Shown here piece after piece: positions 10,658 through 33,846 of a DNA stretch of 64,000 nucleotides (positions are counted from its first letter, which is position 1; each line of letters begins with the position of its first letter). Position numbers and translations under genes: made by a program. Location of the stretch: assembly GCA_009842645.1 (NCBI GenBank), contig VYFB01000068.1, positions 10,904-74,903 of the forward strand. The letters run 5' to 3'. This DNA comes from Nitrospira sp. SB0677_bin_15 (GTDB taxonomy: Bacteria > Nitrospirota > Nitrospiria > Nitrospirales > UBA8639). Below the pieces are notes generated by a model, which saw only the letters and a list, made by a program, of their open reading frames with translations, was not told where the DNA came from and ran no database searches.

Positions 10658-10664
10658 GAAAGTT

Positions 10665-10702
10665 CCCCCTCACCCCAGCCCTCTCCCTCGTTGGGGAGAG
10701 GG
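10665..10702. repeat. Family A hairpin repeat (copy A2)
   Basis: ccccctcaccccagccctctccctcgttggggagaggg, starting 8 nt after the zinc-ribbon gene stop. Same orientation as A1. Confidence 0.8.
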
Positions 10703-10747
10703 TGTGAATGCCTCTACCCCACCTGACCTCCCCTTACAAAGGGGAGG
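10703..10747. repeat. Family C repeat (copy 1)
   Basis: gaatgcctctaccccacctgacctccccttacaaaggggagg. The reverse complement is similar to 44790-44837. Confidence 0.6.
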
Positions 10748-10757
10748 AAATAACGGA

Positions 10758-11138: not shown

Positions 11139-11143
11139 CGGCG

Positions 11144-12433
11144 TTACAGCGTCATCTTCGGGAAGACCGGCAAGTTGGAGTCGGTGACGTTGGTCAGTTT
11201 GATGGCCGCGGCATAGAACTGATGAAACCGGTCGGCTTTCGTGGTGTGAAACCCATGGCCCAGGACGCTCTGATGGGCCGCATCCCACAGCGTTTTGAGC
11301 TTGGTCCACTCGTTGACGAAGGTTTGCCCCATGGGATGCCCCAGCCCTGACAGGGCGCGAAATTGGGCATGAAGCGGCAGGTGAAACTTGCCGTCCACGT
11401 CGCTGCTATAACAGGTCCGGCAGGCTTCCTGCAGATCCTTCGGCAATTGGTCAACCTGTACGTCCCAACTCTTGATGCGATACTGTTTCCACAAGTGGTA
11501 CTGGGCATAAGCTTCCAAGGCTCGCAGCAACAGTTGGAGGGCAGAGTCGATTTGCTGCTCTCCGGCACGCCGTTTGGCATGGGCAAGCAGATCATGCGCC
11601 ACGGGAAGCTTGACGTCATCGGGGTCCATGACGATGCTTTCCAAAAATTTCAGGTTGTGTTTGACCCTGGACAGTAGTGATGACATGCCGGCCGGCCCAT
11701 CCCAGACCGAGGCCAACTCCAAGGCCTTGTGCGCGGTTTTGAGTTTGTCCCAGGCGTCCCGGTACTTGAAGCTTTCCCAGGCGGCATAGCCGTCGGCTAA
11801 ATCTGCGAGGCCGTGATACAGCGGTTTGAGGCTTCCCCCGACCAACGATTCAATGCGTCGAAACCGTTTGGCTGCCGATGAGAACCCTCCTTGATTGAAT
11901 AACAGGGCTGCTTCCTGCCGTGCCGGTACGGCTTCTTCGTTCCAGGGGTTTCCTTCCTGCCAGGCGAAGGCCCGGTCTCCGGCCTCGATCACGTCACTCC
12001 CTTCGACTCCGCTCAGGACAGGCAGGGCAGGCTTGCCCGTGCCGCTTCCTGGCGCGGTCAAGCCGACGACTTGCGACATCCACGGCCTGCAGGCGAGCAC
12101 CATTGCTGCGGCAATGGCCGGCGTGGTCCGGCTGAAGTCCACGACAAGCTCTCCGGGTTGCAGGCCCCAGGTCTTCAGCATCTCGGGAAGGCTCCTGGTT
12201 AGCGTTTGATGGACCGCGGTAAAACTCTCGGACTCTTCCGCAAAAATCCAATCCCACCGTTGCGGCATGGTGGTGATGGCCGGTTGAACTTCGGTTTCGA
12301 TGGAGCCTTTTCGGGACTCGGAGACGACGAAACAGAGAAACTCCGGGGCGAGCCGGTTGATGCAGGCTTGCACCGGAATAGGGTCCTCTGACACTGCGAT
12401 GAGTAAGGCTTTGGTCCGATATTCCCCGCTCAT
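11144..12433 (-). CDS. Orphan CARF-domain protein, TIGR02710-like (CARF + HEPN-like helical domain)
   Basis: N-terminal Rossmann-like ALLIAVSEDPIPVQACINRLAPEFLCFVVSE. C-terminal AKRRAGEQQIDSALQLLLRALEAYAQYHL ... HQSVLGHGF resembles the Cas02710 family. Start set at ATG 12431-12433 (MSGEYRT); upstream ORF sequence is repeat-derived. Confidence 0.55.
   Translation of the reverse strand: MSGEYRTKALLIAVSEDPIPVQACINRLAPEFLCFVVSESRKGSIETEVQPAITTMPQRWDWIFAEESESFTAVHQTLTRSLPEMLKTWGLQPGELVVDFSRTTPAIAAAMVLACRPWMSQVVGLTAPGSGTGKPALPVLSGVEGSDVIEAGDRAFAWQEGNPWNEEAVPARQEAALLFNQGGFSSAAKRFRRIESLVGGSLKPLYHGLADLADGYAAWESFKYRDAWDKLKTAHKALELASVWDGPAGMSSLLSRVKHNLKFLESIVMDPDDVKLPVAHDLLAHAKRRAGEQQIDSALQLLLRALEAYAQYHLWKQYRIKSWDVQVDQLPKDLQEACRTCYSSDVDGKFHLPLHAQFRALSGLGHPMGQTFVNEWTKLKTLWDAAHQSVLGHGFHTTKADRFHQFYAAAIKLTNVTDSNLPVFPKMTL
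11999..12032. repeat. Collapsed family I repeat lying in frame inside the CARF CDS
   Basis: cccttcgactccgctcaggacaggcagggcaggc, encoding ...PALPVLSGVEGSD... Shares the cttcgactcc / gctcaggacagg / cagggcaggc blocks with 12501-12579 and 51727-51785. Confidence 0.6.
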
Positions 12434-12500
12434 GACCGCGAAACTATACCATCGCCTTCCGGCAAACTCCAAGCGCCGACTGTGTAGGGGACGGCCCCGT

Positions 12501-12665
12501 GCCTGCCCTGACCCTTCGACTCCAGGCGCAGGGCAACTTACGCCCTTTGACAAGCTCAGGACAGGCTCAGGGTGAACGGAGAGGGGGCCATACAACGATT
12601 TCAGTTTGGCGGTTCCCTCCCTCCGTTCGCCCTGAGCGTAGCGATAGCGAAGTCGAAGGGTGCCG
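12501..12665. repeat. Composite family I + family H repeat (copy 1)
   Basis: gcctgccctgacccttcgactccaggcgc...gctcaggacagg, then ...cctgagcgtagcgatagcgaagtcgaagg. Same composite at 51727-51850. Confidence 0.7.
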
Positions 12666-12914
12666 TCCCGAATTGGCCGGAAGGCAGGTACAGGGACCTG
12701 TTCTTATAGCTCCCCACCGGTTCGCCGGCGGGCTGCGCCCTTGGCTCCCCGACTCCCCCTCAAGGGGGGAGTGATGAAGACAGGGGTAATTTTATAGACC
12801 AATAGGTATAATATAGTTGAGATTTAGGAAGTAGTGGGCCTAGAATCGCTTCTGGCCGTTTCGGCATGAAAGAAGAAACGTTGTTTGTCAGGACCAACAT
12901 TCGTTGGGTTGCCG

Positions 12915-13961
12915 ATGCAGAAAAACATTCCAGTGGTTGATGATGATCCAGACGCCGTGTTCCGCGAGGACGTCGATTCACGGTACGGCACCATCGTAGC
13001 GGACACGCCGGCCATGGCGTCTCTCGTTGCATTGATCAAACGGGCAGCGGATTCGGATGCCACCGTGCTGTTGCTGGGAGAAAGCGGGACGGGCAAGGAA
13101 CTCTTTGCCAGGTCCATCCATCAATGGAGCAGGCGGATTGAGAATCCCTTCGTCGTGCTCAATTGTGTGGCCCTGACCGAGACCCTGCTCGAAAACGAAT
13201 TGTTCGGTCACGAAAAAGGCGCGTTCACGGGCGCGACCGCGCAACAAAAAGGCAAGGTCGAACTGGCCGATAACGGCACCCTCTTTCTGGACGAGATCGG
13301 GGACATGGCACTGGACCTGCAAGCCAAATTGTTGCGTCTTCTACAGGACCGGGAATTTCACCGCGTAGGCGGGACGCACTTGGTTCAGGTCAACATCCGG
13401 GTCATCGCCGCGACGAACTGCGATCTGTCAAAGGCTGTGAGAGAAGGCAAGTTCCGTGAGGACTTATTTCATCGGTTAAACGTGATCAGTTTTTCCATAC
13501 CTCCCTTACGAGACCGACCCGATGAGATTCCTCATTTGGCCGGCCTGTTCTTCCGGCGCTATACCAAGGAGATGGGAAAGCCGGGCATGCGGCTGACGGA
13601 AGCCGCCCTCGGGGCCATGCAGCGGTACCGGTGGCCGGGCAACGTGCGGGAATTGGAGAACGCCGTGGCCCGGGCCGTGGTCCTGTCCACGGACCGCGAA
13701 ATTGGTCCCGAGCATTTACGTCTCCCACAGGATTACGAAGCAAAGTCCCAAGTTCATGAAGAGGAGCCCCAGGTCAGGGAGTCCGGCGCGTTGCTCTACC
13801 ATCAGGCCATGGAACGGTATCGCTATTTTCTGATTGAACAGGCGCTGAAACGCACTCACGGCAACCAGACCAAGGCTGCCGAAGCGCTCGGACTTCAGCG
13901 CTCCTACCTCGCGCGCGTTCTCAAACAGAAACAGGCAGAAAATCGCAAAAACGAGAAGTAG
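12915..13961 (+). CDS. Sigma-54-dependent transcriptional activator lacking a receiver domain
   Basis: AAA+ core [20 protein letters not shown] loop (EKGAFTGA), and a C-terminal Fis-type HTH ([17 protein letters not shown]). Only ~35 aa precede the AAA+ domain. ATG at 12915. Confidence 0.85.
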
Positions 13962-13975
13962 GGCAGCTTCCCGGG

Positions 13976-15820
13976 TCAACCGGCCGGAAGCGTAAAATAA
14001 AATCGGGTCCCGCTGCCTACTGTGCTTTCCACCCAAATCCGTCCTCGATGCAGGTCCACCAGGCTTTTCGTAATTGCCAACCCCAAGCCTGCTCCCCGTG
14101 TCTCCGTCGTCCCGCTGTCGTTCCGGTAGAAGCGATCGAAGACGTTGGGCGCCTCTTCGGGGGCGATGCCACAGCCCGTGTCGGCGACACACACTTGGAT
14201 CGTGGAGTTTTGCAACGGCACGAGTGAAATCGAAATGCGACCGGATGAAGGCGTAAATTTTATGGCGTTGTGAATGAGATTCGTCAGAATCTGAAGAATC
14301 TTGTCCCGGTCTCCCTGTACCGGCGCAAGCTGCGAAGGGGTCGTGGCCTCCAGCACAAGGGATTTCTCTTCCGCTTGGGGGCGCAGATTGTCCAAGGCTT
14401 CAGCGGTCACTTCGGTCAGCGAGACGTCAGTCAACCGTAATGCCACGTGACCGGCTTCGATACGGGACAAGTCCAGCAGGTCGTTCAGCGTTCGCGTCAA
14501 TCGGTCGATGTTATATTTGACCCGCGTGAGATACAAGACTTGTCGCTCACGTAAATCCCCGGTCACGCCGGTCAGCATGTTTTCCACGAAGCCTTTTATG
14601 GAGGTCAGGGGCGTGCGTATTTCGTGCGACGCAATGGAGACGAAGGCGGATTTGCGTTCATCGAGTTCCCGGAGCCGTTCGTTGGCGACTGCGAGGGAGC
14701 GCGTTCGTTCCAGGATCCGGTTTTCCAACTCCGCGTTCAGTGTGCGGAGTTCCACAACGGTGCGTTCCTGTTCGAGATAGGCTTCTCGAAGCTCTTCGTG
14801 TCGGGCATCTACGGAATCCACTTGTTCTTTGAGCAAGGTTTTCTGTTCTTCCACTTTCTTCTTGAGACGATACCAATTCCAGATGAACCAGGAGGCCAAG
14901 CCCGGGATGAGGGTCCGGAGGCTTGCCTCCAACCAGGACCATTCAGGGTGCATCGCTCTGACGTAGACGAAGGCCAGAATGCTCATACACGCCACGGTCC
15001 CGGTCACGACCCATCCACGGGTTTCAGAGAGCGGCTGGGCGGGCCAATGGAATTCCCATTCACAGGACTCGTCCCCATCTGCCATGCATCGGAGGTCCCG
15101 GACGCTGGCGAATCCCAGGTGATGAACCAGTTGCGGCACAGCCAGGAGTCCGGCCTTCGATGCCTGGCAGATGACATAGGCGCACCGGTTCCGATAAGGG
15201 CCAAATTGTTGAGCGACGTGTTCGGTCAGCGTCATACCCAGGACGGCTGAACCATTGGTCACGTTGCGTACGCTGAAACGAAGGGAGTCTTTGGCAAATT
15301 TTTCTCCGAAGCGCGGGAACAGTTCGAAGATTTGCACAACGGAAAACGGACGCCCCAGGGTTTGAATGACGGGAGAAATGAATTTGTGTTTGCCCATTTC
15401 GAATTGAAAGTTCGGATCCTCGGAGATGAGGATGCAGAATTCACCGAGATAAATGGCGAATTCATAAGAATAACTGTGCCAGATGTTTTGTAAGAATTCG
15501 GGGGTCACGTGGTACGAGGGATCGCTGATCCGGGTGTTCAGCGAATCGCAGAGGCGCTCGATGGCTTGCCGACCGGCGGCTTCTCCGTTTTTCTTGCCGA
15601 CGACTTCTTCCAGGTATTCGACGTTTGCCTTGATCGTAATTCCGCTCACGTCGCGGATTTTCCGTCCGTCCGGGGTCACGCCGAACGGACGAAATTGCAT
15701 GACGGGTCTTTCCAGGATGGAATGCTTTTTCGAAAGCAGCTTCATGGAGCCACTCGCAGGTGTGCCGGACGCGGATTCCCGGTTTACCGGAAACGACCCG
15801 GTTGCTACGGGCTCGCTCAT
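13976..15820 (-). CDS. Sensor histidine kinase (unassigned N-terminal sensor region, 2 TM, HisKA, HATPase_c)
   Basis: H-box SIASHEIRTPL, N-box LIHNAIKFT, G-boxes DTGCGI and GAGLGLAI. ATG 15818-15820 overlaps the apaH stop (ATGA). Confidence 0.85.
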   Translation of the reverse strand: MSEPVATGSFPVNRESASGTPASGSMKLLSKKHSILERPVMQFRPFGVTPDGRKIRDVSGITIKANVEYLEEVVGKKNGEAAGRQAIERLCDSLNTRISDPSYHVTPEFLQNIWHSYSYEFAIYLGEFCILISEDPNFQFEMGKHKFISPVIQTLGRPFSVVQIFELFPRFGEKFAKDSLRFSVRNVTNGSAVLGMTLTEHVAQQFGPYRNRCAYVICQASKAGLLAVPQLVHHLGFASVRDLRCMADGDESCEWEFHWPAQPLSETRGWVVTGTVACMSILAFVYVRAMHPEWSWLEASLRTLIPGLASWFIWNWYRLKKKVEEQKTLLKEQVDSVDARHEELREAYLEQERTVVELRTLNAELENRILERTRSLAVANERLRELDERKSAFVSIASHEIRTPLTSIKGFVENMLTGVTGDLRERQVLYLTRVKYNIDRLTRTLNDLLDLSRIEAGHVALRLTDVSLTEVTAEALDNLRPQAEEKSLVLEATTPSQLAPVQGDRDKILQILTNLIHNAIKFTPSSGRISISLVPLQNSTIQVCVADTGCGIAPEEAPNVFDRFYRNDSGTTETRGAGLGLAITKSLVDLHRGRIWVESTVGSGTRFYFTLPAG

Positions 15821-17503: not shown

Positions 17504-17577
17504 TGGGGGATCGTCTAGGGGCAAGACAACAGATTTTGGATCTGTGAACCCAGGTTCGATTCCTGGTCCCCCAGCCA
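17504..17577 (+). tRNA. tRNA-Gln (anticodon UUG)
   Basis: Manual cloverleaf: acceptor TGGGGGA/TCCCCCA, anticodon stem ACAGA/TCTGT with loop TTTTGGA, T-arm CCAGG-TTCGATT-CCTGG, encoded CCA end. Confidence 0.85.
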
Positions 17578-21836: not shown

Positions 21837-24647
21837 TTACGCGGCGGTTGCGCGTGAATGGCGCGCCAGGATATCAAGGATGTCACCTGGAGTCTTGGAC
21901 ACGGCCCAAGTCCAGCGACCGAAGCCGCCATGCGCGTTGACGGCGTTGACCCATTCTTCGAGAAACCGGCGCTTGGTTCGGTCTTGCTCGCTGTCCTGAC
22001 CCTTGATTTCCAATATCAACATGTCACCGGACGTGAGCCTGATGAGAAAATCGGGCCGGTATTTCCGCACCACGCCGCGATAGACGTAGAGCACCTCGAA
22101 GCCGAGGTGATCGTTTTTCACCCAGGCCGCTACCGCGGGGTTGTGATCAAGCTCGAAGGATTCTGACGCTTCCCACGTACTGTCATAGACACAAAAATTG
22201 ATATGACTTTTCGCGGTATGCTCGCAGGGCTTACCGGTGTACCATGTCCCCATGTCACCGGTTGAACGGATGGGATGGTCGCGATCAAACACCGGCTCCA
22301 GCTTCTCGGTATTCTCGAAGCGGATTGCTTCCCAGATGTGTTGGACCACCTTGGTCATATTGAGCGTAATGATGAGACGGCGCTTGAGATCGTCGTGAAC
22401 GAATAAGGCGGGAGTGACGTTGATTCGATCCGAACGAATGAACTGCTCGACCAGCCGAACCAACTGGGCCAGCAGGAAAGCCTTACCACCCTGCCAGTTC
22501 GTCTGCATTTGGTCGTAAACATCCCGAGCGGTTTCGAAGATGATCCGTTGAGTTCTGAATTCCTTTGCCAGTTTTCCCAGATCGATAGCCCCGATTTTTG
22601 TAACGTCCGGTTTGCCCTCGACAACCGAGGCAAGCTCCGCAAGTTTGGCTGTCTGGCTGGCGTCGAGTTCCAAGGTCGTCACCCTTTCCAAATCCAGGGA
22701 AAGGTGCGGGTGGTAGACGTGGTCAATACGGATGACGTTCGGCCAGGAAATTTCAAAAGCCGCTTTGTCCGCTACCGGCTCGATAGCCGTTTTCGGTTTC
22801 GGTGGTTCCGGGATGACGCCCTCCGCCGACTCATGCGGCAGGAAAGTGAACGGCACACCGAAAATATTGACGTGCTCCGGTTTGAACAAGCCGGTGTCCG
22901 GGTCGGCCTCGTAGGCGGTCCGTCGCAAGCCGCGTCCGACGACCTGCTCGCAGAGCAACTGACTGGTAAAGGCTCGCAAACCCATGATATGGGTCACGGT
23001 CTTTGCATCCCAACCCTCGGACAACATCCCCACGGAAATTACCTTCTGTATCTGCTCGCCGGGTTTTCCCACTTGGCCGACGGTGTCCACTTGCAAGCGC
23101 AGTCGCTCGGCTTGTTGTTTTTTGGTCAACTTCGGTTTTTGGTCGTCGTCCCCGCCTTCCTTGCTTTCGTCGGCAGCGATCTCTGCAATCGGCTCCTCGG
23201 CGGCCTCGGCTTGCCCCAGTACCTTGGAGTCGATGTGCAAGGTGCGTTCCGGATCGCAAAGCTCGTCGATGTGGACCTTACGGTGATCCAGCGCATACTT
23301 GATTCGAGCCGCAGTCTCGGTTCGGTTGGCGACCGTAATCATGACCGGCGGCGTCTTGAATCCGGTAGCGTCCCAATCCTTGGTGGCTTCGCGCCAGTCG
23401 TACCCTAGCAGGTAATAACCGTTCATGACCAAATCCGGCAGCGGTTCTTCGGGCTTGGCTTTCCTGGTCAAGTCGTCTTTGACCTCCGGGTCGTTGTAGA
23501 TATGGTACAGGCGGGATTTGTAGGTCCTGGCATCAGGCACCGCGTCGTCGCGAATCACGACGCGCGGGGTCTTGACCAATCCGGATTCAATGGCATCGTT
23601 CAAGCCGAAGTCACTCACGATCCAGTCGAACAATGCCTCCTCGGAACTCCGTTTGCCTGATGGCGCAAAAGGCGTGGCGGAGAAGTCGTAGCAAGTGAGA
23701 ATGCCACGTGCCTTGTTTATCCGGTCGAGACCGCCCACCCACTTGGTCGCTTCCTCGATGTCCTCCTTGGCAACGCCTCTGACCTTGGATTCGGCGGGAA
23801 CCCGCCAGGCGTGATGCGCCTCGTCGTTAATGACCAGGACGTTCCGGGCACTCGCCAAGTCGTCCAGCACTTCGCGGACGTAGGCTTCATCGCTCTTGGT
23901 TCCGCGCTTATCCACGCTACGCTTTTTGTCGATCTTCTCCTCGGTTTCCCGGTTGAGCGCGTGCCAGTTGCGGACGATAACCTTGCCTTGGCGCAGTTTG
24001 TCCAGCAGGGACGACGGCACAATGGAGAACTTTTCATAATAGTTTTCCGAGTCGGACGGTTCGAGCACTGCAAGACGGCTTTTAACCGTCAAGCCGGGGG
24101 CAATGATCAAAACATTCCGGGCAAATCGCGCATCCTGCGGATAGGTCACCTTGTTCAGGATATGCCAGGCGACGACCATGGCCATGACGATGGTCTTGCC
24201 CGAACCGGTCGCCAGCTTTGCGCACAAACGTTGGAACGGCCCGCCGTCAGACTGAGGCTCCACGCCGACCTTATCGGCGGCGGACGCTTCCGCAAGCCAG
24301 ATCAGCGTCTCGGCAGCTTCAAGCTGACAAAAGAATAACCGCCGATTATCGAACTCTTCAGGGTTTGTCCAATGTTCCAGCAGTCGCTTCGTGATGCCCG
24401 TGACGCCCGGATACCCGGCTTCGCGCCACGCCCGTACGCGTGGCCGGATCAGATTGACGAGGGGAATTTCAACGAAATGACCTGGGTCATCGAACGATCG
24501 GGAGCCCTCCGAGGCAATGACGTATCCGGCCGGCCGCCGGTCTTCCACAAGCGAGAAAGTGCGTTGCTCATGGTCATAACTCCAGTACTTCGTTGGTTCC
24601 TCGTAAGGTGAGTTGATGATGAGGCGGTCAATAGTCGCCCGTGCCAT
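21837..24647 (-). CDS. res: Type III-like restriction enzyme Res subunit (SF2 helicase + C-terminal PD-(D/E)xK)
   Basis: 936 aa. KLATGSGKT, INDEAHHAW, C-terminal YRPDFLIRL...LILEIKG nuclease motif. N-terminus IINSPYEEPTKYW is typical of this Res family. Confidence 0.85.
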   Translation of the reverse strand: MARATIDRLIINSPYEEPTKYWSYDHEQRTFSLVEDRRPAGYVIASEGSRSFDDPGHFVEIPLVNLIRPRVRAWREAGYPGVTGITKRLLEHWTNPEEFDNRRLFFCQLEAAETLIWLAEASAADKVGVEPQSDGGPFQRLCAKLATGSGKTIVMAMVVAWHILNKVTYPQDARFARNVLIIAPGLTVKSRLAVLEPSDSENYYEKFSIVPSSLLDKLRQGKVIVRNWHALNRETEEKIDKKRSVDKRGTKSDEAYVREVLDDLASARNVLVINDEAHHAWRVPAESKVRGVAKEDIEEATKWVGGLDRINKARGILTCYDFSATPFAPSGKRSSEEALFDWIVSDFGLNDAIESGLVKTPRVVIRDDAVPDARTYKSRLYHIYNDPEVKDDLTRKAKPEEPLPDLVMNGYYLLGYDWREATKDWDATGFKTPPVMITVANRTETAARIKYALDHRKVHIDELCDPERTLHIDSKVLGQAEAAEEPIAEIAADESKEGGDDDQKPKLTKKQQAERLRLQVDTVGQVGKPGEQIQKVISVGMLSEGWDAKTVTHIMGLRAFTSQLLCEQVVGRGLRRTAYEADPDTGLFKPEHVNIFGVPFTFLPHESAEGVIPEPPKPKTAIEPVADKAAFEISWPNVIRIDHVYHPHLSLDLERVTTLELDASQTAKLAELASVVEGKPDVTKIGAIDLGKLAKEFRTQRIIFETARDVYDQMQTNWQGGKAFLLAQLVRLVEQFIRSDRINVTPALFVHDDLKRRLIITLNMTKVVQHIWEAIRFENTEKLEPVFDRDHPIRSTGDMGTWYTGKPCEHTAKSHINFCVYDSTWEASESFELDHNPAVAAWVKNDHLGFEVLYVYRGVVRKYRPDFLIRLTSGDMLILEIKGQDSEQDRTKRRFLEEWVNAVNAHGGFGRWTWAVSKTPGDILDILARHSRATAA

Positions 24648-24738: not shown

Positions 24739-25308
24739 TCACAAGGCCAAATCAGCAAAAGCCACTATAGGTCCCAAAAATTTCTTAATGTTAATACCCT
24801 CGTACCGTTCCTCTTCTATCTTTCCTGGCCTGCTTTTCACGGGCTGTTTATCAAGTCTCTCGTTTATTCTCTCACCGATAAGAACGTAACTCATACTTGG
24901 CGTCGGAATCGTTTCTCTGCTTTCAATGCGGCAAACAGCGAGGAGATACCCCAGTAGCGGACGTGATCTCCGTAACTGTTCTTTAGGATGACGGTTTCCA
25001 CCCAGAGTTTTCTTCAATTCGATAAACATCGCATGATACGCTTCTCCATTTTAGTAGATCAGCAGATAATCGCAGATCTTTTTCCAATCTCCCGTTTTCA
25101 GAACTGACAAATGGCCAAATTTCCTGGTGAACTGAATCGTGGTGAGAGAGTCAGGAACACCCGAGACGACCACTATCATATCTGGCTGGTTCTCATTTTT
25201 CTCCCGAAGAGTGATGTCGTTGCTGGTATTTGGTGCTGTTGCCAGAACCTTTCCATCCAACACGTTCTCTATCTGGAAGTTCAGAGTCGCCTTACCTTTC
25301 TGCATCAT
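24739..25308 (-). pseudogene. PD-(D/E)xK-like partner of the ABC ATPase, interrupted by one in-frame TAA
   Basis: ORFs 25051-25308 and 24739-25029 are in the same frame, separated only by TAA (25051-25053). The joined reading ...ICDYLLIY*NGEAYHAMFIELKKTLGG... has a D...ExK pattern. It aligns with CCDYFVTNNDSVFLIEETQ and the shared QPDM of the 47978-48445 protein. ATGA overlap with the ATPase stop. Confidence 0.55.
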
Positions 25309-26879
25309 GACTCAGTACCCCTCACTCGAGATGCCAGTTCATTCGAAGCACGGTTGATTTTGTCGATTGTTGTGTCAAAAATCGGCATTTCTACGCCAAA
25401 TTTATCTACTGCACATTTGGTTAGGCGGTTCTCTTCCGCGACGTACCCTCGAATTGAATCTGGTTCAAGGAAATCGTCTTCCTTATACCCAAGCTTCCTC
25501 ACCACTTTGTCTTTACCCTCAAAGGAGTTGCTTAGCATGATGAGATTGTTGATTTCCTTCACGAGATAGTCACTGTGAGTTGTAATCAAAACTTTCAAGC
25601 CAGTCCGTACCAATCGAGCCAACAGTCGTGCCAACAGAATCTGGTTGGTTGTATCGAGATGACTCTCCGGTTCGTCGATAATGAGGAGGTGATTTTTCTG
25701 AGCGACGTGACGTAAGAAGAAATACAAGTCGGACAACCCACGTGCCGAAGAGGAAGCAAGATGAAGCGGTATGCTGAAGCTGTGTTCTTTGTTGCGTGTT
25801 GTGGATTTGAATTTGATATCGTCACCTGAGCTTTTATAGTAACCCCTTATCATATCCTTTATCTCGTCAAACAACTTGTGTTCATGAAGCTCACTTGTCT
25901 GCTTTTGGAAATCAGATAAATTTCTGGTGTAATCAATGTTGTCTTTGATGGGAAGAGCATAGCGGCTGGTGGTTTTGTCGATCAGGAAAAATGGAGAAAA
26001 GTGCTTTCTGTTTTTTTCAGCTCCCACCTTCTGTAGCAAATCCACCAATTGATTCTTAGTAAAGTCGAGTTCTTTGTAGAAGAGCGAGATGCCAAATCGT
26101 TCAGCAGACAGGACGAATGGAGCCCAAAAAAGCTCTGGAAAGAGAAACCGAAGATAAAGGCGTGGAATTAAGAATAATGCCTCGTCGTCAAAGGATGAGT
26201 TGTGTTGCTTCTCAGTGCGGTCTCTGGTTAGAACAATTTTTTCACCGTTGTATCGTATGGAAAACACGTCTCCCGATGGAAATTTTTCTTCAAGAGAATG
26301 ATTTTTGGGAAACTCACCAATCAACTCAACGTTGAGCGAGGCTCTTTTGAAATCATCTGGTGAAGAACTGAACACACCATAAAGAGCTGTTTTTGAAAAA
26401 CTTTGGGCCAAACTCTTAATCACTTTCTTTCGTTCTTGATCAAGATTCTCTCGATCTATGGTCCATGTGGCTTGGCCTTCCTTCATTGCTCGCCGGACCA
26501 ACATCCCTATTCTTTGCGGCAAGTTGCGCCATTTGTCGTGCAGCGGCTTCCCTTCTTTCCCGCTTCCCACATCCTCAACGTACTCGTCTTCGTCGGCGTA
26601 ATGCTCTCGATCGGGATACTCATCATCAGGGTCGGCCTCATTTGTGTCGTCATTCTGCGCGATGTCATCGTTGCCTATAAGAAAATGTCTAGCATTTGGC
26701 CACGAGTACCACATTTTCAAGAAGCCGTATAGCGTATATACTAGATACGTCTTGCCCGTATTGTTACAGCCAGCAACGATTGTGAGATCTCCCAATTCCA
26801 ATTCAGCGTGATTAACGGGACCAATATCTGTGAATAGAAATTTCACTGATGGAGACTGATGATTGTTGGTGGGCTCCAT
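25305..26879 (-). CDS. ABC-type (AAA_15/AAA_21-like) ATPase
   Basis: 524 aa. Walker A AGCNNTGKT, acidic insert NDDTNEADPDDEYPDREHYADEDEYVED, signature-like SSSARGL, Walker B LLIIDEPESHLD, H-loop ITTHSD. AT-rich. Confidence 0.75.
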   Translation of the reverse strand: MEPTNNHQSPSVKFLFTDIGPVNHAELELGDLTIVAGCNNTGKTYLVYTLYGFLKMWYSWPNARHFLIGNDDIAQNDDTNEADPDDEYPDREHYADEDEYVEDVGSGKEGKPLHDKWRNLPQRIGMLVRRAMKEGQATWTIDRENLDQERKKVIKSLAQSFSKTALYGVFSSSPDDFKRASLNVELIGEFPKNHSLEEKFPSGDVFSIRYNGEKIVLTRDRTEKQHNSSFDDEALFLIPRLYLRFLFPELFWAPFVLSAERFGISLFYKELDFTKNQLVDLLQKVGAEKNRKHFSPFFLIDKTTSRYALPIKDNIDYTRNLSDFQKQTSELHEHKLFDEIKDMIRGYYKSSGDDIKFKSTTRNKEHSFSIPLHLASSSARGLSDLYFFLRHVAQKNHLLIIDEPESHLDTTNQILLARLLARLVRTGLKVLITTHSDYLVKEINNLIMLSNSFEGKDKVVRKLGYKEDDFLEPDSIRGYVAEENRLTKCAVDKFGVEMPIFDTTIDKINRASNELASRVRGTES

Positions 26880-26914
26880 GGTGTGTTCCTTTGTATGGTG
26901 AACGTCAGATAACC

Positions 26915-26989
26915 TGCAATCTTTGTCATCCTCAGGCTTTTAAAGTCCTGATCGTCAATGACTTTGACCATGATGCGTTTGTACTCACC
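26915..26989 (-). other. Relic of a Mod C-terminal coding end (copy 3, decayed)
   Basis: Reverse-strand reading GEYKRIMVKVIDDQDFKSLRM..., compared with the mod end SGENKRIAVKIIDDRGIESLKIIEVE*. Confidence 0.55.
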
Positions 26990-27293
26990 GACCTCACGTA
27001 GATCGTCTCAGTGGATTAGAGAATCGCCTTGCGGCGGATGTAATTCTGGATCTGTTCAACACCCTGCCAACTGACAAGATCAACTTTGCATTCGAATATC
27101 GTCGCCAACTCTGCCTCCATCCAGGTTATGTCGAATAGAGTATGAGGGCTTCTTCCTCAAAACGTGCCAACCCGTCCATGTCGCTTTCGGGAGACCGAAA
27201 TCGTCTTGTAGCGAACAGGGCCAGTTCTGTCACCTGCCACCGTATACAAAAGGCGGCGATTTCGTCTTGCGGTATGGTCACTTGTGAGTTCAT
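26990..27293 (-). pseudogene. Decayed MntA-type nucleotidyltransferase (second copy)
   Basis: Nucleotide-similar to 28593-28903. It reads MNSQVTIPQDEIAAFCIRWQVTELALFA... An 8-nt deletion removes the GS motif codons, then a -1 shift and TAA follow. ATG overlaps the DUF2235 stop (ATGA). Confidence 0.65.
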
Positions 27294-28476
27294 TGCTTTG
27301 CCGCTTTAGTCGATTTTGGAATTTTGTATTCCCGTAACCCGCTGATTCCTTCTATCTTGTTGCTGAGGTTGCCGTTATTCAATAGTAGTTTGAAACTGAG
27401 TCCGCGCAGTGCTGGTGGCCGGTAGCCGGTAACTTTATCAAATCGCTCTTTGACGCATTGATACAGAATAGGGAGGTCATTTAGATTCTTGCTTGGTCGG
27501 TCATTGACGTTGACCCGAATCATGCGAGGTTCCTGAGCCCCGATTTCTGTCAGCAAGCCTGAATGAGTGTGCAAAATGCCTTGGATCATCGGATTGATCG
27601 CAATGTCGTCTACGGTCAGCCCCGCCATCGCTTTGCCTTGTTGTACAAGCAAATTCTTGATACCAGCTTGATTACCTGGTTTTATAGCAATATCTTTACC
27701 CAAAGTCGCTTCGCACTGTTTGATCATAAACCGAAGCGCTTGATCAGACAGTCCATCAAACCAATAACCCCCACCAATATCGCTGTGGACGCCGGGGAAC
27801 CAGACCTCCAAAATGCGGTCTGGGTTCTTCCCATCCTTGTTAATTAGCGTTGGATCAAAAGGCACGCGGTCTTCATCAAGTGATACGATGTGCACAGCCC
27901 GCTGCACTCGTGCATTCAAAGTACCATTCTCGAACACCACGTCGCTACTAATCTTCTCACCTTTTCGGTGTATGCCGTTCATGGCGGCGACGGTGTCGAA
28001 TACACCCAAGAAAGAGACGGTGCACTTATTCTTGTCGTTAAGGATCTGGCTGACGAATTTCCGAGCCAATGCCGCACCTCGGCTAAAACCAAAACCACGA
28101 TTCGATCATTGTCCTCATAACATTTCTCGAAATCATTTCGTGCCTCGCGAAGAATCCTGGCTGCGTCCCCCCATTTTGGTGCCACAGTCATATTTACGAA
28201 CTTCTGAGCTTTTGAGATCAGCCAACCCACCAACGGGACCCATTGGCCGTCTTCACGGGTACCGATGCCGTTGTAGTAGTGAGTTATCTGATCCTCGCCG
28301 TTTAGTGTTTTTGTCGAGGAGTTGTCGGCCTCTATTCCTCCACCCATCAGGATGTGGAGTTTGAGTACGTTGCTTACACTTTCATCTTCGGCAAACTGTT
28401 TGGCATCGCTCGGTTCATTACCAGTGCCGTCAAAACTAAAAACGAGAGTTTTGTGTATCCGTTCGTTTTTTGACAT
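27290..28476 (-). pseudogene. DUF2235 (Tle1-like alpha/beta hydrolase) gene with a frameshift
   Basis: N-terminal part (27979-28476) reads LVFSFDGTGNE...YYNGIGT. C-terminal part (27290-28069) reads ARKFVSQ...GVFDTVAAM...FPGVHSDIGGGY. The frames join if the run aaaa at 28091-28094 (tttt on the coding strand) gains one base, restoring RIVVFGFSRGAALARKF. Confidence 0.75.
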
Positions 28477-28514
28477 TGGTACTCTCCTATCAAGCCCTTT
28501 GTTATTATTGGCCC

Positions 28515-28592
28515 TCACTCTATCTCCACAATCTTCAAACTCTCGATGCCCCGGTTGTCGATGACTTTGACAATGCTGCGTTTGTACTCACC
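28515..28592 (-). other. Relic of a Mod C-terminal coding end (copy 2)
   Basis: Reverse-strand reading GEYKRSIVKVIDNRGIESLKIVEIE* (TGA at 28515-28517). About three quarters nucleotide identity to 29790-29867 by eye. Confidence 0.65.
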
Positions 28593-28903
28593 GACCTCAC
28601 GTAGATCGTCTTGGCGGATTGGAGGATAGATTTGCGGCGGATGTAGTTTTCGCTCTGTTCAACGCCTTGCCAACTCACAAGATCAACTTTGCGTCCGAAT
28701 ATCGTCGCCAACTCTTCCTCCATGCGGTCTAGATCGAACAGGGTATGTCGGGCTTTTTCCTCAAAACGTGCCAATACGTCTACGTCGCTTTCGGGACCGA
28801 AATCGTCGCGTAGCACGGAACCGAACAAAGCCCGTTCCGTCACCCGCCACCGTTTACAAAAGGCGGCGATCTCGTCTCGCGGTATATTGATATGCGCGTT
28901 CAT
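28535..28903 (-). CDS. MntA-type minimal nucleotidyltransferase (no HepT partner)
   Basis: MNAHINIPRDEIAAFCKRWRV..LFGSVLRDDFGPESDVDVLA (GS...DxD pol-beta NTase motif). ATG 28901-28903 overlaps the TIR-like gene stop (ATGA). The last ~20 codons read out of frame through the Mod-end relic. Confidence 0.75.
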   Translation of the reverse strand: MNAHINIPRDEIAAFCKRWRVTERALFGSVLRDDFGPESDVDVLARFEEKARHTLFDLDRMEEELATIFGRKVDLVSWQGVEQSENYIRRKSILQSAKTIYVRSVSTNAALSKSSTTGASRV

Positions 28904-29790
28904 GCCTGAAATGCCCGGTTCGCGTCGACTGAGATTCCGGTGGTCTTTAGCTCTTGAATAAGTTTTGACTGCCAACCTCCAGAGGCATCCAATGGAATGT
29001 ACACAACGCCCGCATAATCAGATGGTATCTCCACGTCTCCCTTGGTCAGGGCGCAGACGCCCTCTCGGCCAAGCCGTCCGATGAAAAACCCCAATTCGAA
29101 AATCACGTTCTGTCGTGCCCGTGGGCTGAGGTTGTTCCTGTCGCTCTGAAGCGAACCGGCATCGTCGGGTGTCAGCAAAGCTACGGCAAACTGCGCATCC
29201 GCATGATATTCGAACTTCTCGATGATTGTGCGGCCCGCATTCGGTTGTTCCTGAAGTATCACTGGCTTGAGACCCAGTTTTTCTAGGAATCTCGACACTT
29301 GATCTCTGGTGCCTTCATCTCTGCCGTGAATGACAAAGACTTTATCCGAATTTGGTGGGGCGTTTATTAGTGCCCCCGAAGATTTTAGCGTCTGCTCTCC
29401 GTCTTGCTGTTTTTTCTTTCGGGTCCTAGAAGACGTTCTCTGATTGTCATCTTCCCAATACTCCTCGACCTCTTTAATCATCGATTCTAGGAATGACGCC
29501 GCTAATTCCAATCCCCTAACGTAGGCTTCTTGGCACACAGAAGGGATCGATAACATGTCAAGGAACACATCATCAGGAGTATCCCATGTCTTTGTTGGAT
29601 CATAATTGATATTGTTGAATCGATGAATCTGGGCTGAGTCGTCCCCAAAGGTATTGCTGATGGCGAGCCCTGTATCTATTTTCCACCCCTCAAACTGCGG
29701 TGAATCATAAGATAATTGCTTCAATTCAGGTATCGCATCTAGGACCTCCTTCAGACGTTCTATCGCCTTGGCTTTGGGCTGTCGCGCCAT
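28900..29790 (-). CDS. TIR-like (CAP12/PycTIR-type, PF10137-like) domain protein with an unassigned N-terminal domain
   Basis: C-terminal KVFVIHGRDEG...FAVALLTPDD...RARQNVIFELGFFIGRLGR...PSDYAGVVY matches the TIR-like nucleotide-binding family. ATG 29788-29790 overlaps the mod TGA by 1 nt. Confidence 0.72.
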   Translation of the reverse strand: MARQPKAKAIERLKEVLDAIPELKQLSYDSPQFEGWKIDTGLAISNTFGDDSAQIHRFNNINYDPTKTWDTPDDVFLDMLSIPSVCQEAYVRGLELAASFLESMIKEVEEYWEDDNQRTSSRTRKKKQQDGEQTLKSSGALINAPPNSDKVFVIHGRDEGTRDQVSRFLEKLGLKPVILQEQPNAGRTIIEKFEYHADAQFAVALLTPDDAGSLQSDRNNLSPRARQNVIFELGFFIGRLGREGVCALTKGDVEIPSDYAGVVYIPLDASGGWQSKLIQELKTTGISVDANRAFQA

Positions 29791-32378
29791 CACTCCACCT
29801 CGATGATTTTCAAGCTCTCGATGCCCCGGTCGTCGATGATTTTGACCGCGATGCGCTTGTTCTCACCTGACACAAAGGGCAGGGAGGTGGTGCCGCGATA
29901 GGTTTCGATCAGGTCCGTGTCGATTTCGGCTTTGAGGTTCTTGGCAAGTTTCGCCCAGCCGTCTTCGTCACCGGCCATGGGGAAAAATACCTGGCGGGGG
30001 AACAGACTGCGCCCGTCATAGTCAGGGTCCAGCATCCACATGGCAATCCTGTCCCTGCCGCCGGATTCCACGTTGCCGGTTTTGGTGTTGTAGTAGTCGA
30101 AACCTCGGACCGAGACACGGAGCTTGCCTTTGTCCTCCCTATCCGGGACCCCTTCAAGTTCCACGTCCGGCTGGCCGATTAGCCAGAAGCTCTCGTTGCT
30201 TGCGCGCTTTTTCTTGAGGTCATTGGTCAGCAGGTCGGCGTTCATCTGTGCCTTCAACAGTGTGACGCCGGGCCAGTTGGTCTCGTCGATGTCCTTCGCC
30301 GCCTCGGGGTCGAACTGGAAGGCTGCGAAAATAATGATCGTGGGCTTGGGAACAAGGGTCTGAGCTTCCTCAATGGCGAGGGCTACCTGCCGTTGTTCCA
30401 TCGGCGCGTGGTCCGGTCCGAACGAGATCACCACGCGTTCGGGATTCTCGGCTGTTCCTCCGTCACGAATGCGATCCGCGCCGGTGCTATCAGGCCGGGT
30501 TTCTCCCTCGGCGTGCAGCCATCTGGTGCCCGGCAATGGCTCCAACCGCGCAAACGAGATGCGTTGCCCTGCCTTGCCACGTATGCCGGTTTTGAACAAC
30601 TCGTCGCGCCAATCAGCTTGCCGTAGAGTCTGTCCTGTACGCGCCACGGAGTGATCCGCGGGCTGTTTATCGACGATTTCGTCCAAAGGCTTCACCGCTG
30701 GAGCGGGAACCGCTTCGACCGTGAATGGTCCGGTGACACGTGTTTTGGTCTTGTCCACTAGCGGCTGGTCATGGCGCGTTATGGCAGAGGACGGCTCTTC
30801 GTTTGCTAAAATTTTGGGCGAAACTTTGGGGACAGTCTTATAATTGAAGCCACTCCCTACGCCTTCTTGGGAATGAGCCAATTTGTAGTAGTCGTAAACG
30901 GAAGTCATCAGGCGCTGTTTGGTCAGAGTGAGGGCCACCCGGGAGGTATCGCAAGTGATCCAGCGACGGCCCCATTGCTCGGCAACGTGAGCGGTGGTGC
31001 CGGAGCCGCAGGTGGGGTCAAACACCAAATCGCCCGGGTCGGTGGTCATTAAAATGCAGCGTTGAATTGCTTTGATGGAAGTCTCTACAACATATTTTTT
31101 TTCACTTGGAAACATCTGTGCGGGCCAGATGTTGTTAATTCTTCGGCCCGGCACTTCATCTTCGTATTTCTTCCATCTGAGTGAATCCTGTCCCTCCAAG
31201 GCTTCCAGTCGTCCCAATTTCGCCAGTTGATCCAATCCCTCCGGATTGGAAATAGACCACTGTCTATTCTTAGCACAGTGAAAAGTTCTGTTGTTGTACA
31301 CATAGGGTTCCGATCGCCCGGTAGTGGAAACACCTTGCGAATCCAGACCGGTGCGTTCATACAGACGCGCGCCTAGGGGCAAATATCTGTCAGGATCGAA
31401 ACGCTCTTCGTCGGTTGGCTTTCGACAACTTCCGTCGGGTAATTCCACCATGACGTGCCAACTGAAGTAGTCAATGATTTCCGTGCGGGTCAGGGTCTCA
31501 TACAATTGCCGATACTTCACGCGGTCCTTGTCCTTTGCGTACCACAGCAAATAATCGGCTACTTGTGGTAAGTGAGCCGTAGAACTGCCACTCGTCGTCG
31601 CGAAGGATATGGTCGCCACCCGATTTGTCGAACCAAAAACATCATCCAAGACCATACCTGCACGGTGCACGTTCTCATCGCCAATCTGCACAAAACACGA
31701 TCCACTATCCACTAACAACTCTCTTGCCAACAACAGGCGGTCCCTCAGATAAGCAAGATAAGAGTGGATGCCGAGTTCCCATGTATCGCGGAAAGCGCGG
31801 ATGGTCTCCGGCTCCTGGGTCAGATCCTCGTCCTTGCCGTCGGTCACGTCTCGTTTGTTCACAAACGGCTGGAAGTTCGAACCGTAGCGGATGCCGTAGG
31901 GCGGGTCGATGTAGACCATCTGGACCTGGCCGCCAAGTCCTTCCTTTTCCAACAGGCTGTTCATGACCAGCAGACTGTCGCCTGCGATCAGGCGGTTGGT
32001 CCAATTGTGCCGGTGTTTGTAGAACTCGATGGCTTGGCGGATCGGCGGGTTTTCTTCGGGCGCGGCGAACAGCGCCATTTGCGGTTTCGCGCCATTTCGT
32101 TTCCGCACGGCTTCGACAATGGTGCGCGGGTCGATGCGCTCGTGAACGTGAAGCGAGACGGTCGGTACTTCGAAGGACGTGTGCTCCGCCTTGCCGGCCC
32201 ATTGCAGTTGCGGATCAAGGTGAGGATCGTAGGCGTAAGTCTTCTTGCCTGAATCCCTGTCCGTATCCGGCGTCACCAAGCCAACCGGCGGATTGTTCAC
32301 GCGCTCTTTGTCAGTATGCGCGTAAGTCTCGATGTCCCTTTTCGCGCTCTTCTTAGGACTTTTCTTTGGCTTCGCCAT
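29790..32378 (-). CDS. mod: Type III-like DNA methyltransferase (beta-class N6A/N4C)
   Basis: 862 aa. VYIDPPYG (motif IV) precedes FDPTCGSGTTAHVA (motif I). Confidence 0.9.
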   Translation of the reverse strand: MAKPKKSPKKSAKRDIETYAHTDKERVNNPPVGLVTPDTDRDSGKKTYAYDPHLDPQLQWAGKAEHTSFEVPTVSLHVHERIDPRTIVEAVRKRNGAKPQMALFAAPEENPPIRQAIEFYKHRHNWTNRLIAGDSLLVMNSLLEKEGLGGQVQMVYIDPPYGIRYGSNFQPFVNKRDVTDGKDEDLTQEPETIRAFRDTWELGIHSYLAYLRDRLLLARELLVDSGSCFVQIGDENVHRAGMVLDDVFGSTNRVATISFATTSGSSTAHLPQVADYLLWYAKDKDRVKYRQLYETLTRTEIIDYFSWHVMVELPDGSCRKPTDEERFDPDRYLPLGARLYERTGLDSQGVSTTGRSEPYVYNNRTFHCAKNRQWSISNPEGLDQLAKLGRLEALEGQDSLRWKKYEDEVPGRRINNIWPAQMFPSEKKYVVETSIKAIQRCILMTTDPGDLVFDPTCGSGTTAHVAEQWGRRWITCDTSRVALTLTKQRLMTSVYDYYKLAHSQEGVGSGFNYKTVPKVSPKILANEEPSSAITRHDQPLVDKTKTRVTGPFTVEAVPAPAVKPLDEIVDKQPADHSVARTGQTLRQADWRDELFKTGIRGKAGQRISFARLEPLPGTRWLHAEGETRPDSTGADRIRDGGTAENPERVVISFGPDHAPMEQRQVALAIEEAQTLVPKPTIIIFAAFQFDPEAAKDIDETNWPGVTLLKAQMNADLLTNDLKKKRASNESFWLIGQPDVELEGVPDREDKGKLRVSVRGFDYYNTKTGNVESGGRDRIAMWMLDPDYDGRSLFPRQVFFPMAGDEDGWAKLAKNLKAEIDTDLIETYRGTTSLPFVSGENKRIAVKIIDDRGIESLKIIEVE

Positions 32379-32503: not shown

Positions 32504-32923
32504 CTAAGAGGTATTTCTCTTCATGAGAACGGTGTATCCATCTTGCTCAAAATGGTGGTCATTAGTCAGGATCTCTGTAATTGATTCCGAATCCATAGCG
32601 TTCATGGAAATACAATCTTGTAAACTATATCCTTTGTCAGGTCGTTCCTCGTATCGCCTCAGGCCCCTTTGAAAGGAATCTCGGGATTGGGGAATAACTT
32701 TTACATTTGGATTACCTAAAATCCCGCGAACGACTCGTACCACTATGTCTCGCAAACGCGGCCTTTTTGATAGAGCTGTCAAAAATTCCGTAAGTACCTC
32801 CTCCGTGGTCACAAGCCGTGCATTTCCCAATTGTTCCCGTGCATCTTCCGCCGCTTGTCTCCATTGGTCTTTTGGATTTGCAATTGCAATCCAATATACG
32901 GTGTCCACAAACACTTTTTTCAT
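32504..32923 (-). CDS. PIN-domain ribonuclease (VapC-like)
   Basis: 139 aa. Acidic quartet context FVDT, TTEEVLTEF, LQDCIS, TNDHHF. ATGA overlap with the upstream ORF. Confidence 0.8.
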   Translation of the reverse strand: MKKVFVDTVYWIAIANPKDQWRQAAEDAREQLGNARLVTTEEVLTEFLTALSKRPRLRDIVVRVVRGILGNPNVKVIPQSRDSFQRGLRRYEERPDKGYSLQDCISMNAMDSESITEILTNDHHFEQDGYTVLMKRNTS

Positions 32924-33846
32924 TCTTCTTCCCCGCCGTACAGATAATGGTCCAATCTATCCGTAAGGTCGGGGGGGAGCCTATCCCACTCCTCATCTGG
33001 TACGTCTTTGGCAATCTTAGCTATTACATCCTCAATGCGCGGAGCGCTTGAATCGAAAATCGGATCTTCATCCCTGACAAGCTTGAGGCTATCCACATTG
33101 ATGATTCGCTTTAGCGTTCCTTGCGGAGTAAATTCACCATGGCCTCGTACTGCGAGGTGCACAAACTGGTGTTCCTTGAGAGCGGTTGTCACTTCTGATT
33201 CCTGCTCTTCCGTAAATGTAACGAAAGCATTCGTTCGTTCGTCGAGCCAGATCTGAAACTTTCTTTGCCGGACATCGGCTTCAAGGACACGCCCAGTTAT
33301 ATTTACTTCGTCTTCATATGGCTGCTCGGCCAACTCTCTTAGACGCTGACGTTCAAGCTTTGCAACTTGCGCTGGATGATTCCCACGCTGTGCGAATCCT
33401 AACGCATCATTCTCTGAGAGACTTTCTCCCCAACGAGCGTATTCAGGTAGAAGTTCCTTTGGACATTCTTCTGGTAGCTGTGTGTTGTCATGAACTGCTC
33501 TGAACACACGATAGATAACATCTACGGCTTCGGTTAGTTCCCGAGCTATTTCTGGTTCCTGGTCCAAGTAGTCGAGTTGCACCGGCTCTTCAATAGACAC
33601 TTCGAGTGGAATGACGGTGCTGCCGTCTTCGATCGTGCGGAAGCACAAACGCGTTCGGTCTTCAAAGTTTGACGGCAATCGTTCACGACCTGGATTTGTC
33701 CTCCGCCAAATGACTTTGGCCGTCTCGGCAACCATCTTCTGGAAGTGTTCGAGTTCGCGCAGTGCGGTGAGATCAAGTGCGTGATCGCTGAAACGTTCGC
33801 CATGGAAGTGCAGTCTTACCACTTCTTTCCATTGCTTGGTCATCAT
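32920..33846 (-). CDS. Hypothetical 308-aa protein in antitoxin position upstream of PIN
   Basis: Long ORF with ATG-ATG at 33841-33846, overlapped by the TGA of a Mod-end relic. No recognised domain. Acidic C-terminal tail ...DEEWDRLPPDLTDRLDHYLYGGEEE. Confidence 0.6.
   Translation of the reverse strand: MMTKQWKEVVRLHFHGERFSDHALDLTALRELEHFQKMVAETAKVIWRRTNPGRERLPSNFEDRTRLCFRTIEDGSTVIPLEVSIEEPVQLDYLDQEPEIARELTEAVDVIYRVFRAVHDNTQLPEECPKELLPEYARWGESLSENDALGFAQRGNHPAQVAKLERQRLRELAEQPYEDEVNITGRVLEADVRQRKFQIWLDERTNAFVTFTEEQESEVTTALKEHQFVHLAVRGHGEFTPQGTLKRIINVDSLKLVRDEDPIFDSSAPRIEDVIAKIAKDVPDEEWDRLPPDLTDRLDHYLYGGEEE

Follow-up and report, generated by a model that had tools for sequence, protein, structure and literature searches.

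Organization of the locus

In Nitrospira sp. SB0677_bin_15, a 64-kb stretch of DNA (hereafter the window) contains a restriction-modification (R-M) operon whose modification and restriction genes, mod and res, enclose a repeated unit made of a nucleotidyltransferase (NT) gene of the MNT/MntA type and a short relic of the mod 3' end. The locus lies in the Nitrospira chromosome, just downstream of dapB, and every relevant gene is on the minus strand. The mod gene (29790-32378) encodes a Type III-like N6/N4 DNA methyltransferase of 862 amino acids (aa), with matches to Pfam N6_N4_Mtase (103 bits) and PADLOC MTase_III (E=1.8e-156), and its C-terminal peptide, AVKI[IV]DDRGIESLK, is kept across phyla. 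The res gene (21837-24647) encodes a 936-aa restriction subunit that scores 1131 bits against the NCBIfam BPTD_3080 restriction endonuclease model (cut-off 800) and matches Pfam ResIII, its match to PADLOC REase_III being weak (E=2e-8). With mod upstream of res on one strand, the operon belongs to the Type III R-M systems of the BPTD_3080 family.

Three cassettes separate the two genes. The first is intact. It starts with the gene of a 297-aa TIR-like protein (28900-29793), whose start overlaps the mod stop, and continues with NT copy A (28535-28903), which encodes an intact HepT-less nucleotidyltransferase of 122 aa that also matches PADLOC PDC-S09, and with relic 1 (28515-28592), a duplicate of the mod 3' end recognized by junction alignment and nhmmer. 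The second cassette is a pseudogene pair: a DUF2235/Tle1-like alpha/beta-hydrolase gene (27290-28476) is followed by the decayed NT copy B (26990-27293), recognized from its alignment with copy A and from tblastn fragments, and by relic 2 (26912-26989), an older and more diverged duplicate that is 67% identical to relic 1 and aligns with the mod end. Relic 2 adjoins the third cassette, directly upstream of a gene for a 524-aa AAA_15/AAA_21 ATPase resembling PD-T4-4_A (gene A, 25305-26879), whose PDC-M47B-like partner (gene B, 24739-25308) has been freshly nonsense-mutated. The GC content of the cassettes is 0.44-0.50, that of mod and res 0.55-0.60, and that of the dapB flank 0.62-0.65. The loci with which the window is compared are designated below by L-numbers (L001, L161, L171, and so on).

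The repeated nucleotidyltransferase unit

A preliminary description of this DNA had reported that an NT gene and a relic of the mod end form a unit of ~390 nucleotides (nt) that is present twice. Alignment bears this out: copy A (28903-28515) and copy B (27293-26912) are 85% identical over ~385 nt, and the repeat families D1-D6 cover them. Copy A was rightly described as having its GS motif. Its 122-aa open reading frame (ORF) carries LFGSVLRDDFGPESDVDVL, and it has the MNT fold and the hG[GS]...DxD motif, with 52.2 bits against Pfam NTP_transf_2 (cut-off 21) and 35.5 bits against Polbeta; its score against the MntA equivalog NCBIfam NF047752, 38.9 bits, stays below the cut-off of 60. Copy B has lost the GS codons. 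As described, an 8-nt deletion takes these codons, and a -1 shift and a TAA follow; to this must be added a +2 insertion soon after the deletion, which brings the net change to -6. The residual ORF has 55 aa (27126-27293).

Assembly or sequencing artifacts can be ruled out as the source of these frameshifts. L171, an independent assembly that is 98.7% identical, has the very same lesions in NT copy B and in the DUF2235 gene in a gap-free alignment, so they are not sequencing errors, and L161 has intact counterparts.

The other features reported for the unit also hold. Both ATGA overlaps are real, at 28900-28903 after the PF10137 TIR-like gene and at 27290-27293 after DUF2235; the similarity between copies A and B ends at the ATG, and the upstream genes are unrelated. 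No HepT/DUF86 gene is detectable anywhere in the 64-kb window. The NT frame runs into the relic, the last 21 codons of copy A being read-through beyond a core at 28601-28903, and canonical members of the family have 103 aa. The same read-through tail is found in 28 database clusters, mostly from Nitrospira metagenome-assembled genomes, at 62-97% identity. Each copy ends in ~80 nt homologous to the genuine 3' end of mod (29786-29867; relic 1, 80%; relic 2, 67%), and relic 1, in a frame other than that of the NT, reads GEYKRSIVKVIDNRGIESLKIVEIE followed by a stop.

Cargo of the cassettes

The TIR-like protein consists of a variable N-terminal domain and a Cap12/Pycsar-type TIR domain. It matches PF10137 over residues 151-269 (134.2 bits, cut-off 24.7) and PDC-S35 over its full length (residues 8-294, E=6.8e-81), and thus belongs to an uncharacterized candidate family; a literature search on PDC-S35 returned nothing. 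Its NVIFELG segment aligns with NVVFEFG of Cap12 (PDB chain 9lmq_A; motif NV[IV]FE[LF]G), and the glutamate of this motif is presumably the catalytic residue of TIR NADases. Pfam and NCBIfam profile searches of the window protein found no recognizable cyclic-nucleotide sensor domain. The N-terminal ~150 aa cannot be aligned between the window (29364-29721) and L171 (10070-10331), the two proteins having 297 and 264 aa. Such a hypervariable N-terminus between otherwise 100%-identical strains is as expected of a sensor domain under diversifying pressure.

The DUF2235 gene now consists of two ORFs, 28518-27979 and 28069-27290, which score 29.9 and 89.4 bits against PF09994 and leave no intact GxSxG catalytic domain. 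Comparison with the intact 394-aa orthologue of L161 places a 1-nt deletion at ~28095, gene position 385, inside the codons of the GFSRG lipase motif, so that the window gene is a pseudogene; L171 carries the same lesion. In cassette 3, the ATPase matches PADLOC PD-T4-4_A (E=1.2e-105) and PDC-M47A (E=2.7e-88). The only match of gene B is to PDC-M47B (E ~6e-8, scored on the L001 orthologue), and the window gene differs from the intact 189-aa gene of L171 by two substitutions, one of which changes CAA to TAA at codon 86 (25051-25053), a mutation seen in the window only.

The cargo families are PDC-S35 (TIR-like), PDC-S09 (NT), PD-T4-4/PDC-M47 (the ATPase pair), and RmrA/CapP-like (M78), to which PD-T7-4-like and Avs3 genes, as classified by PADLOC, are added in relatives of the window.

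Related arrays in Nitrospira

Ten further Nitrospira arrays, obtained by exact-protein look-ups (L001 is grouped with them), were compared with the window. Eight of them also sit downstream of dapA-dapB; the other two, L161 and L162, are short contigs without the upstream flank. The array of L171 is the same as that of the window. In L161 everything is intact, the order being Mod, TIR-NT+relic, DUF2235-NT+relic, ATPase-partner, and Res. L001, L167, L168, and L174 are without cassette 2 and read Mod, TIR-NT+relic, ATPase-partner, Res. Other arrays have different contents: L163 has Mod, TIR-NT+relic, M78-DUF4411 with an NT stub and a weak relic, DUF2806-NT-HepT, and Res, while L162 has a TIR-like gene with an internally deleted NT and a relic, then M78-DUF4411-NT+relic, ATPase-partner, and Res. 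In L166, a split Mod and a split TIR-like gene with NT+relic precede M78-DUF4411 with an NT stub, and Res. Finally, in L172 Mod is replaced by a TIR-like gene and Avs3a/b, after which come NT+relic, M78-DUF4411, and a split Res.

The window and these ten loci thus share mod and res, apart from the replaced mod of L172, and vary in what is embedded between them. A relic was found after every full NT by nhmmer with a mod-end profile, and each cassette boundary retains an NT, if only its first 25-43 nt. The NT+relic unit, presented earlier as portable, is indeed recurrent and effectively portable: at different loci it follows TIR-like, DUF2235, M78-DUF4411, and Avs3b-like genes.

Two details of individual arrays may be added. 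The L172 replacement (817-13979), at the dapB site, includes a 2162-aa Avs3a (E=4.8e-239) and an Avs3b-like gene. L164 is otherwise identical to L163, with an insertion sequence (IS; rve-family transposase and helper, 11625-13476) after the M78 gene, the rest of the array and res being gone.

HepT partnership and the ancestral operon

In type VII toxin-antitoxin pairs, poly-AMPylation of the toxin HepT is a trait of the MNT/MntA antitoxin. A census of NT homologues was made on 160 loci from genome and metagenome collections, found with an NT alignment at 47-79% identity. A HepT/DUF86 ORF lies directly downstream in 130 of the 165 assessable NT copies (~79%), a lower bound, given that the profile for HepT derives from seven seeds. 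On the question raised earlier of whether the effector adjacency is peculiar to this genome, the TIR-like/NT adjacency is not unique, occurring in at least five phylum-level lineages. The NT belongs to an MNT lineage that is normally paired with HepT, but the window copy does not belong to a type VII pair. A scan of metagenome contigs returned homologues of at most 67% identity, mostly on short contigs, and added little to the HepT census. It was the exact-protein look-ups that supplied the informative loci.

About 17 census loci also contain the mod or res gene of this operon, or both. An effector-less Mod-NT-HepT-Res operon is found in L014, L053, and L088, and L008 and L010 have Mod-TIR-like-NT-HepT-Res, an order also found in L003, with an extra NT-HepT upstream of mod. 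L005 reads Mod-TIR-like-NT-Res, HepT being cleanly missing. In L043, from Chloroflexota (7267-8930), Mod, a PD-T7-4-like gene, and a first NT are followed by a mod-end relic, a second NT with its HepT, and Res. Since Mod-(X)-MntA-HepT-Res layouts occur in several phyla, the ancestral design is a type VII MntA-HepT pair embedded in an R-M operon. The stop of mod and the start of mntA border an optional slot, X, whose most frequent cargo is the TIR-like PDC-S35 gene. In the effector-less operons (L014, L053, L088), the NT ATG overlaps the mod stop itself, which shows that this overlap marks the edge of the slot and is no sign of a partnership with the effector.

Origin of the joint

When ten NT::relic joints were aligned with true mod ends and canonical NT-HepT junctions, they shared one breakpoint, at the mntA stop/hepT start: ATCTATGCGGC|CCCTTCCCGCCCTTT. 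The joint follows mntA to its stop and through the first 7 nt of hepT (ATCTATGCGGC), then enters mod at ...CCCTTCCCGCCCTTTGAAG (Mod ...SLPF...). A second form equals the first minus 18 internal nt; it is found in both window copies and in L161_A, L163, and L166. All copies thus go back to one ancestral event. A single rearrangement in one Nitrospira lineage fused the mntA end to the last ~90 nt of mod, and the simplest origin of the joint is that the stretch running from the mod 3' end through the end of mntA was duplicated in tandem. The relic of L043 is separate: it reads NIVGDRGIEDLKVIALEW followed by a stop (8455-8484), lies between the first NT and the second NT-HepT pair at another distance from the NT, and is visible only at the peptide level, a DNA-level repeat search in L043 having found nothing. 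This separately formed relic indicates that such rearrangements happened more than once.

Exchange of cassettes by recombination

Comparison of the window with L171 reveals a recent exchange. In 60-nt sliding windows and blastn segments, the two sequences are 100% identical outside 28780-30280 and divergent inside this tract, which has no strand of its own. The exchanged tract ends within the last ~490 nt of mod on one side and the first ~120 nt of the NT on the other. Accordingly, the TIR-like proteins are only 59% identical and the adjacent NTs 97%. Across the loci, the NT allele type (groups 'EEL..SW' and 'QDEL..ER') is incongruent with both the junction type and the cargo, and the NT allele of the DUF2235 cassette is not the same in the window as in L161.

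As the exchange ends in the 3' part of mod and the 5' part of the NT, these conserved flanks probably serve as homology arms. Repeat searches and the gene lists of the arrays tied no recombinase, transposase, or terminal inverted repeat to the units, the IS of L164 being unrelated, so ordinary homologous recombination is the likely agent. Each unit holds both flanks of the slot; recombination among units, the real mod end, and the alleles of other strains can therefore add, delete, or replace cassettes.

Selection on the nucleotidyltransferase and on the relic

The 101-codon core of the orphan NT has evolved under constraint. In five pairs, the ratio of nonsynonymous to synonymous substitution rates (dN/dS) is 0.07-0.38, with Fisher p from 7e-4 to 4e-11. 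Of the 29 aligned sequences with the tail (the window and the 28 clusters), 28 retain the catalytic GS...DxD motif. The window and each of the ten related arrays have at least one intact NT, second copies being deleted or decayed. The relic-bearing copies all come from one HepT-less joint, so their divergence built up without an adjacent HepT, and a dN/dS well below 1 suggests that the HepT-less NT is probably still useful and still functions.

The sequence beyond the core behaves differently. The ratio of the proportions of nonsynonymous and synonymous differences (pN/pS) is ~1 for the relic, in the NT frame as in the Mod frame, and ~1 for the NT tail, which indicates that neither is protein-coding. 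A functional C-terminal extension of the NT and a Mod-derived peptide read from the relic were both rejected on these values, and the frame relation to the next gene is not conserved either.

Role of the nucleotidyltransferase

We consider it likely that the locus is an array of anti-phage cassettes between mod and res, in which the NT::mod-3' joint links the cassettes and homologous recombination shuffles them. The cassettes would be independent second-line effectors of the abortive-infection type that, like PrrC, are transcribed together with the R-M genes. The surviving NT would be an orphan antitoxin, with about one working copy per array, that may buffer HepT paralogues in trans or serve some other array-level role; of these, the buffering of HepT paralogues seems the likeliest.

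Several points weigh against this interpretation. The comparative sample amounts to about a dozen Nitrospira loci, picked via NT homologues. An illegitimate crossover between two operon variants would yield the same joint and cannot be told apart from a tandem duplication. Purifying selection on HepT-less NTs goes beyond a pure scar model and calls for an extra assumption, be it a trans-acting antitoxin or another role, and gene conversion from HepT-linked alleles could yield part of the low dN/dS. Nucleotide divergence in the relic (28515-28600 and its counterparts in L161, L163, and L166) is 0.06-0.11 in a small sample, compared with 0.15-0.22, roughly twice as much, at NT third positions; conversion with the real mod end as partner, or a constraint at the nucleotide level, may be behind this. 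Finally, co-transcription is suggested by the packing of the genes; promoter- and terminator-like sites are no commoner between 21500 and 33000 than in shuffled sequences, a count that is uninformative on internal transcription units.

The preliminary description had cast the NT as a possible antitoxin, regulator, or signal source for the TIR-like and DUF2235 proteins. In such a two-gene module, a re-targeted HepT-less NT would hold the adjacent effector inactive by nucleotidylylation, or signal to it. The tight coupling by ATGA overlaps speaks for this, as do the recurrent adjacency of NTs to different effectors, the purifying selection on HepT-less NTs, the joint decay of DUF2235 and NT copy B in cassette 2 of the window and L171, and the independent losses of HepT in L005 and L082 (internally deleted in the latter) with TIR-NT kept. 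Moreover, PF10137 TIR domains elsewhere, those of Cap12 and PycTIR, answer to nucleotide signals, although the window protein has no recognizable sensor for them. The start overlap, however, is the same on mod in the effector-less operons, and a normal HepT follows TIR-NT outside the Nitrospira clade (L003, L008, L010), so that the cognate partner of the NT is HepT. The TIR-like gene also persists without any NT, in L169 (Mod, ATPase-partner, TIR, Res) and alone in L170, as well as beside a dead NT in L072 (in-frame stop, damaged DxD motif) and the internally deleted NT of L162. Conversely, L166 has an intact NT beside a broken TIR-like gene, the M78-DUF4411 cassettes of L163 and L166 keep NT stubs only, and NT and TIR-like alleles do not co-vary between the window and L171; PADLOC treats the TIR-like gene and the NT each as single-gene candidates. 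Control of the neighboring effector is thus unlikely: what stands of the earlier proposal is a portable, recurrent unit conserved without HepT, and what lacks support is its control over TIR-like or DUF2235 proteins. A variant with one NT per array, acting by nucleotidylylation as a safety switch on heterologous effectors or as a reporter of the R-M state, is a doubtful proposition. If true, it would carry the chemistry of type VII antitoxins to targets other than HEPN toxins and account for the presence, in each of 11 arrays, of at least one intact, selected NT while surplus copies decay.

Two further explanations do without a role for the NT or without ordinary recombination. The NT copies could be functionless debris left after the toxin was lost first, in an array that erodes without selection or exchange. 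Loss of the toxin before the antitoxin is the expected order for any toxin-antitoxin pair, and HepT has been lost repeatedly with the NT kept (L005, L033, L082). The pseudogenes of the window (DUF2235, NT copy B, PD-T4-4 gene B), the split mod and TIR-like genes of L166, the split res of L172, and a relic free of protein-coding constraint fit the same picture. Pure decay is nonetheless quite unlikely, as the orphan NT cores have a dN/dS well below 1 and the motif in 28 of 29 sequences, every array has at least one intact NT, most cassettes are intact in most loci, and the recent replacement of the TIR-like allele was clean and left the ORFs open. The relic could otherwise be the recombination site of a dedicated mobile system, such as a small transposable element, an integron-like cassette, or an island whose attachment site has been duplicated: direct repeats of a gene 3' end flank successive cassettes, like the att duplications of tandem island insertion, and L043 has a second, independent relic. 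However, the arrays and the genes next to them include no integrase, transposase, or recombinase, with the sole exception of the unrelated IS of L164, and the units are not bounded by inverted repeats. The exchange end points are hundreds of nt apart inside coding homology, with no fixed site, and the deletions seen in the NT stubs are ordinary ones. We accordingly rejected a mobile element or integron and consider this explanation highly improbable.

Comparison with known systems

Toxins and defense genes nested in R-M operons are well established: PrrC is encoded in the EcoprrI type Ic locus, and many HEPN families are represented in such operons (Anantharaman et al., 2013, PMC3710099). A systematic "guilt-by-embedding" survey has since yielded the PDC candidates of PADLOC (Payne et al., 2024, bioRxiv 10.1101/2024.01.29.577857). 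The effectors of the window are likewise nested on the same strand between mod and res, their content varies between orthologous operons, and the cargo matches the embedded candidates PDC-S35, PDC-S09, and PDC-M47/PD-T4-4. Unlike other embedded loci, the host operon is here of the Type III-like BPTD_3080 family, up to three cassettes follow one another, and a repeated joint, in which a duplicate of the mod 3' end adjoins an orphan mntA as a fusion, separates the cassettes. No description of orphan mntA::mod 3'-duplicate linkers was found in the literature searched.

With type VII MntA-HepT pairs, the window NT shares the MNT fold and the GS...DxD motif; its 47-79%-identical homologues have an overlapping HepT behind them in ~79% of the loci sampled, and the L163 array still ends in NT-HepT-Res. 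It differs from them in that HepT is absent from the window and from most sister arrays, the NT ORF running into a non-coding relic. The TIR-like protein resembles Cap12 and PycTIR, the PF10137 TIR NADases of the cyclic-oligonucleotide-based antiphage signaling system (CBASS) and of Pycsar, in its C-terminal PF10137 match and its alignment over NVxFExG. Contrary to these, it lacks STING and cyclic-nucleotide-binding domains, no cyclase gene accompanies it, and its N-terminal ~150 aa are hypervariable. It is not a CBASS Cap12 (TIR-STING) protein, scoring 39 bits where the cut-off is 450, and its neighbors are mod and the MNT gene, with no cyclase. As in integron arrays, promoter-less defense or toxin cassettes in the same orientation stand in series, separated by a repeated element, and are gained, lost, and replaced between strains, but there is neither an integrase nor an attC-like structured site, and exchange appears to be ordinary homologous recombination.

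The locus is not a new type of system, and its interest lies in a clear mechanism and a clear natural series. An R-M operon can become a multi-cassette defense locus without a dedicated recombinase, via one duplication joint that carries the flanks. This provides a mining rule: in BPTD_3080-type operons, whatever lies between a copy of the mod end and the start of mntA counts as a candidate defense gene, and all the cargo seen so far already matches known or candidate defense families. TIR-like (PDC-S35), DUF2235, and PD-T4-4-like cassettes occur in intact, pseudogenized, and swapped states in near-identical backgrounds, a series well suited to asking if the embedded effectors need the host R-M system. 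The arrays also raise a specific question, that of the role of a conserved HepT-less MntA.

Neighboring features

Just upstream of mod, a 308-aa gene that matches PDC-M32A (E=6e-46) overlaps a 139-aa PIN-like gene (32504-33846, minus strand). With this further candidate defense pair, the whole dapB-proximal region is a defense island. The PIN gene upstream of mod is present in L167 and absent in L163. A single tRNA gene (17504-17574, plus strand) is the sole Rfam match in the window. Mod itself has ~995 aa in L001, L161, L167, and L174, compared with 862 aa in the window, and the gap corresponds to one insertion of ~135 aa between window residues 739 and 754 (L001, 6337-6785). At the same insertion site in L003 (11244-11692), a 120-aa ORF in another frame resembles a four-helix-bundle/23S-rRNA-intervening-sequence protein.

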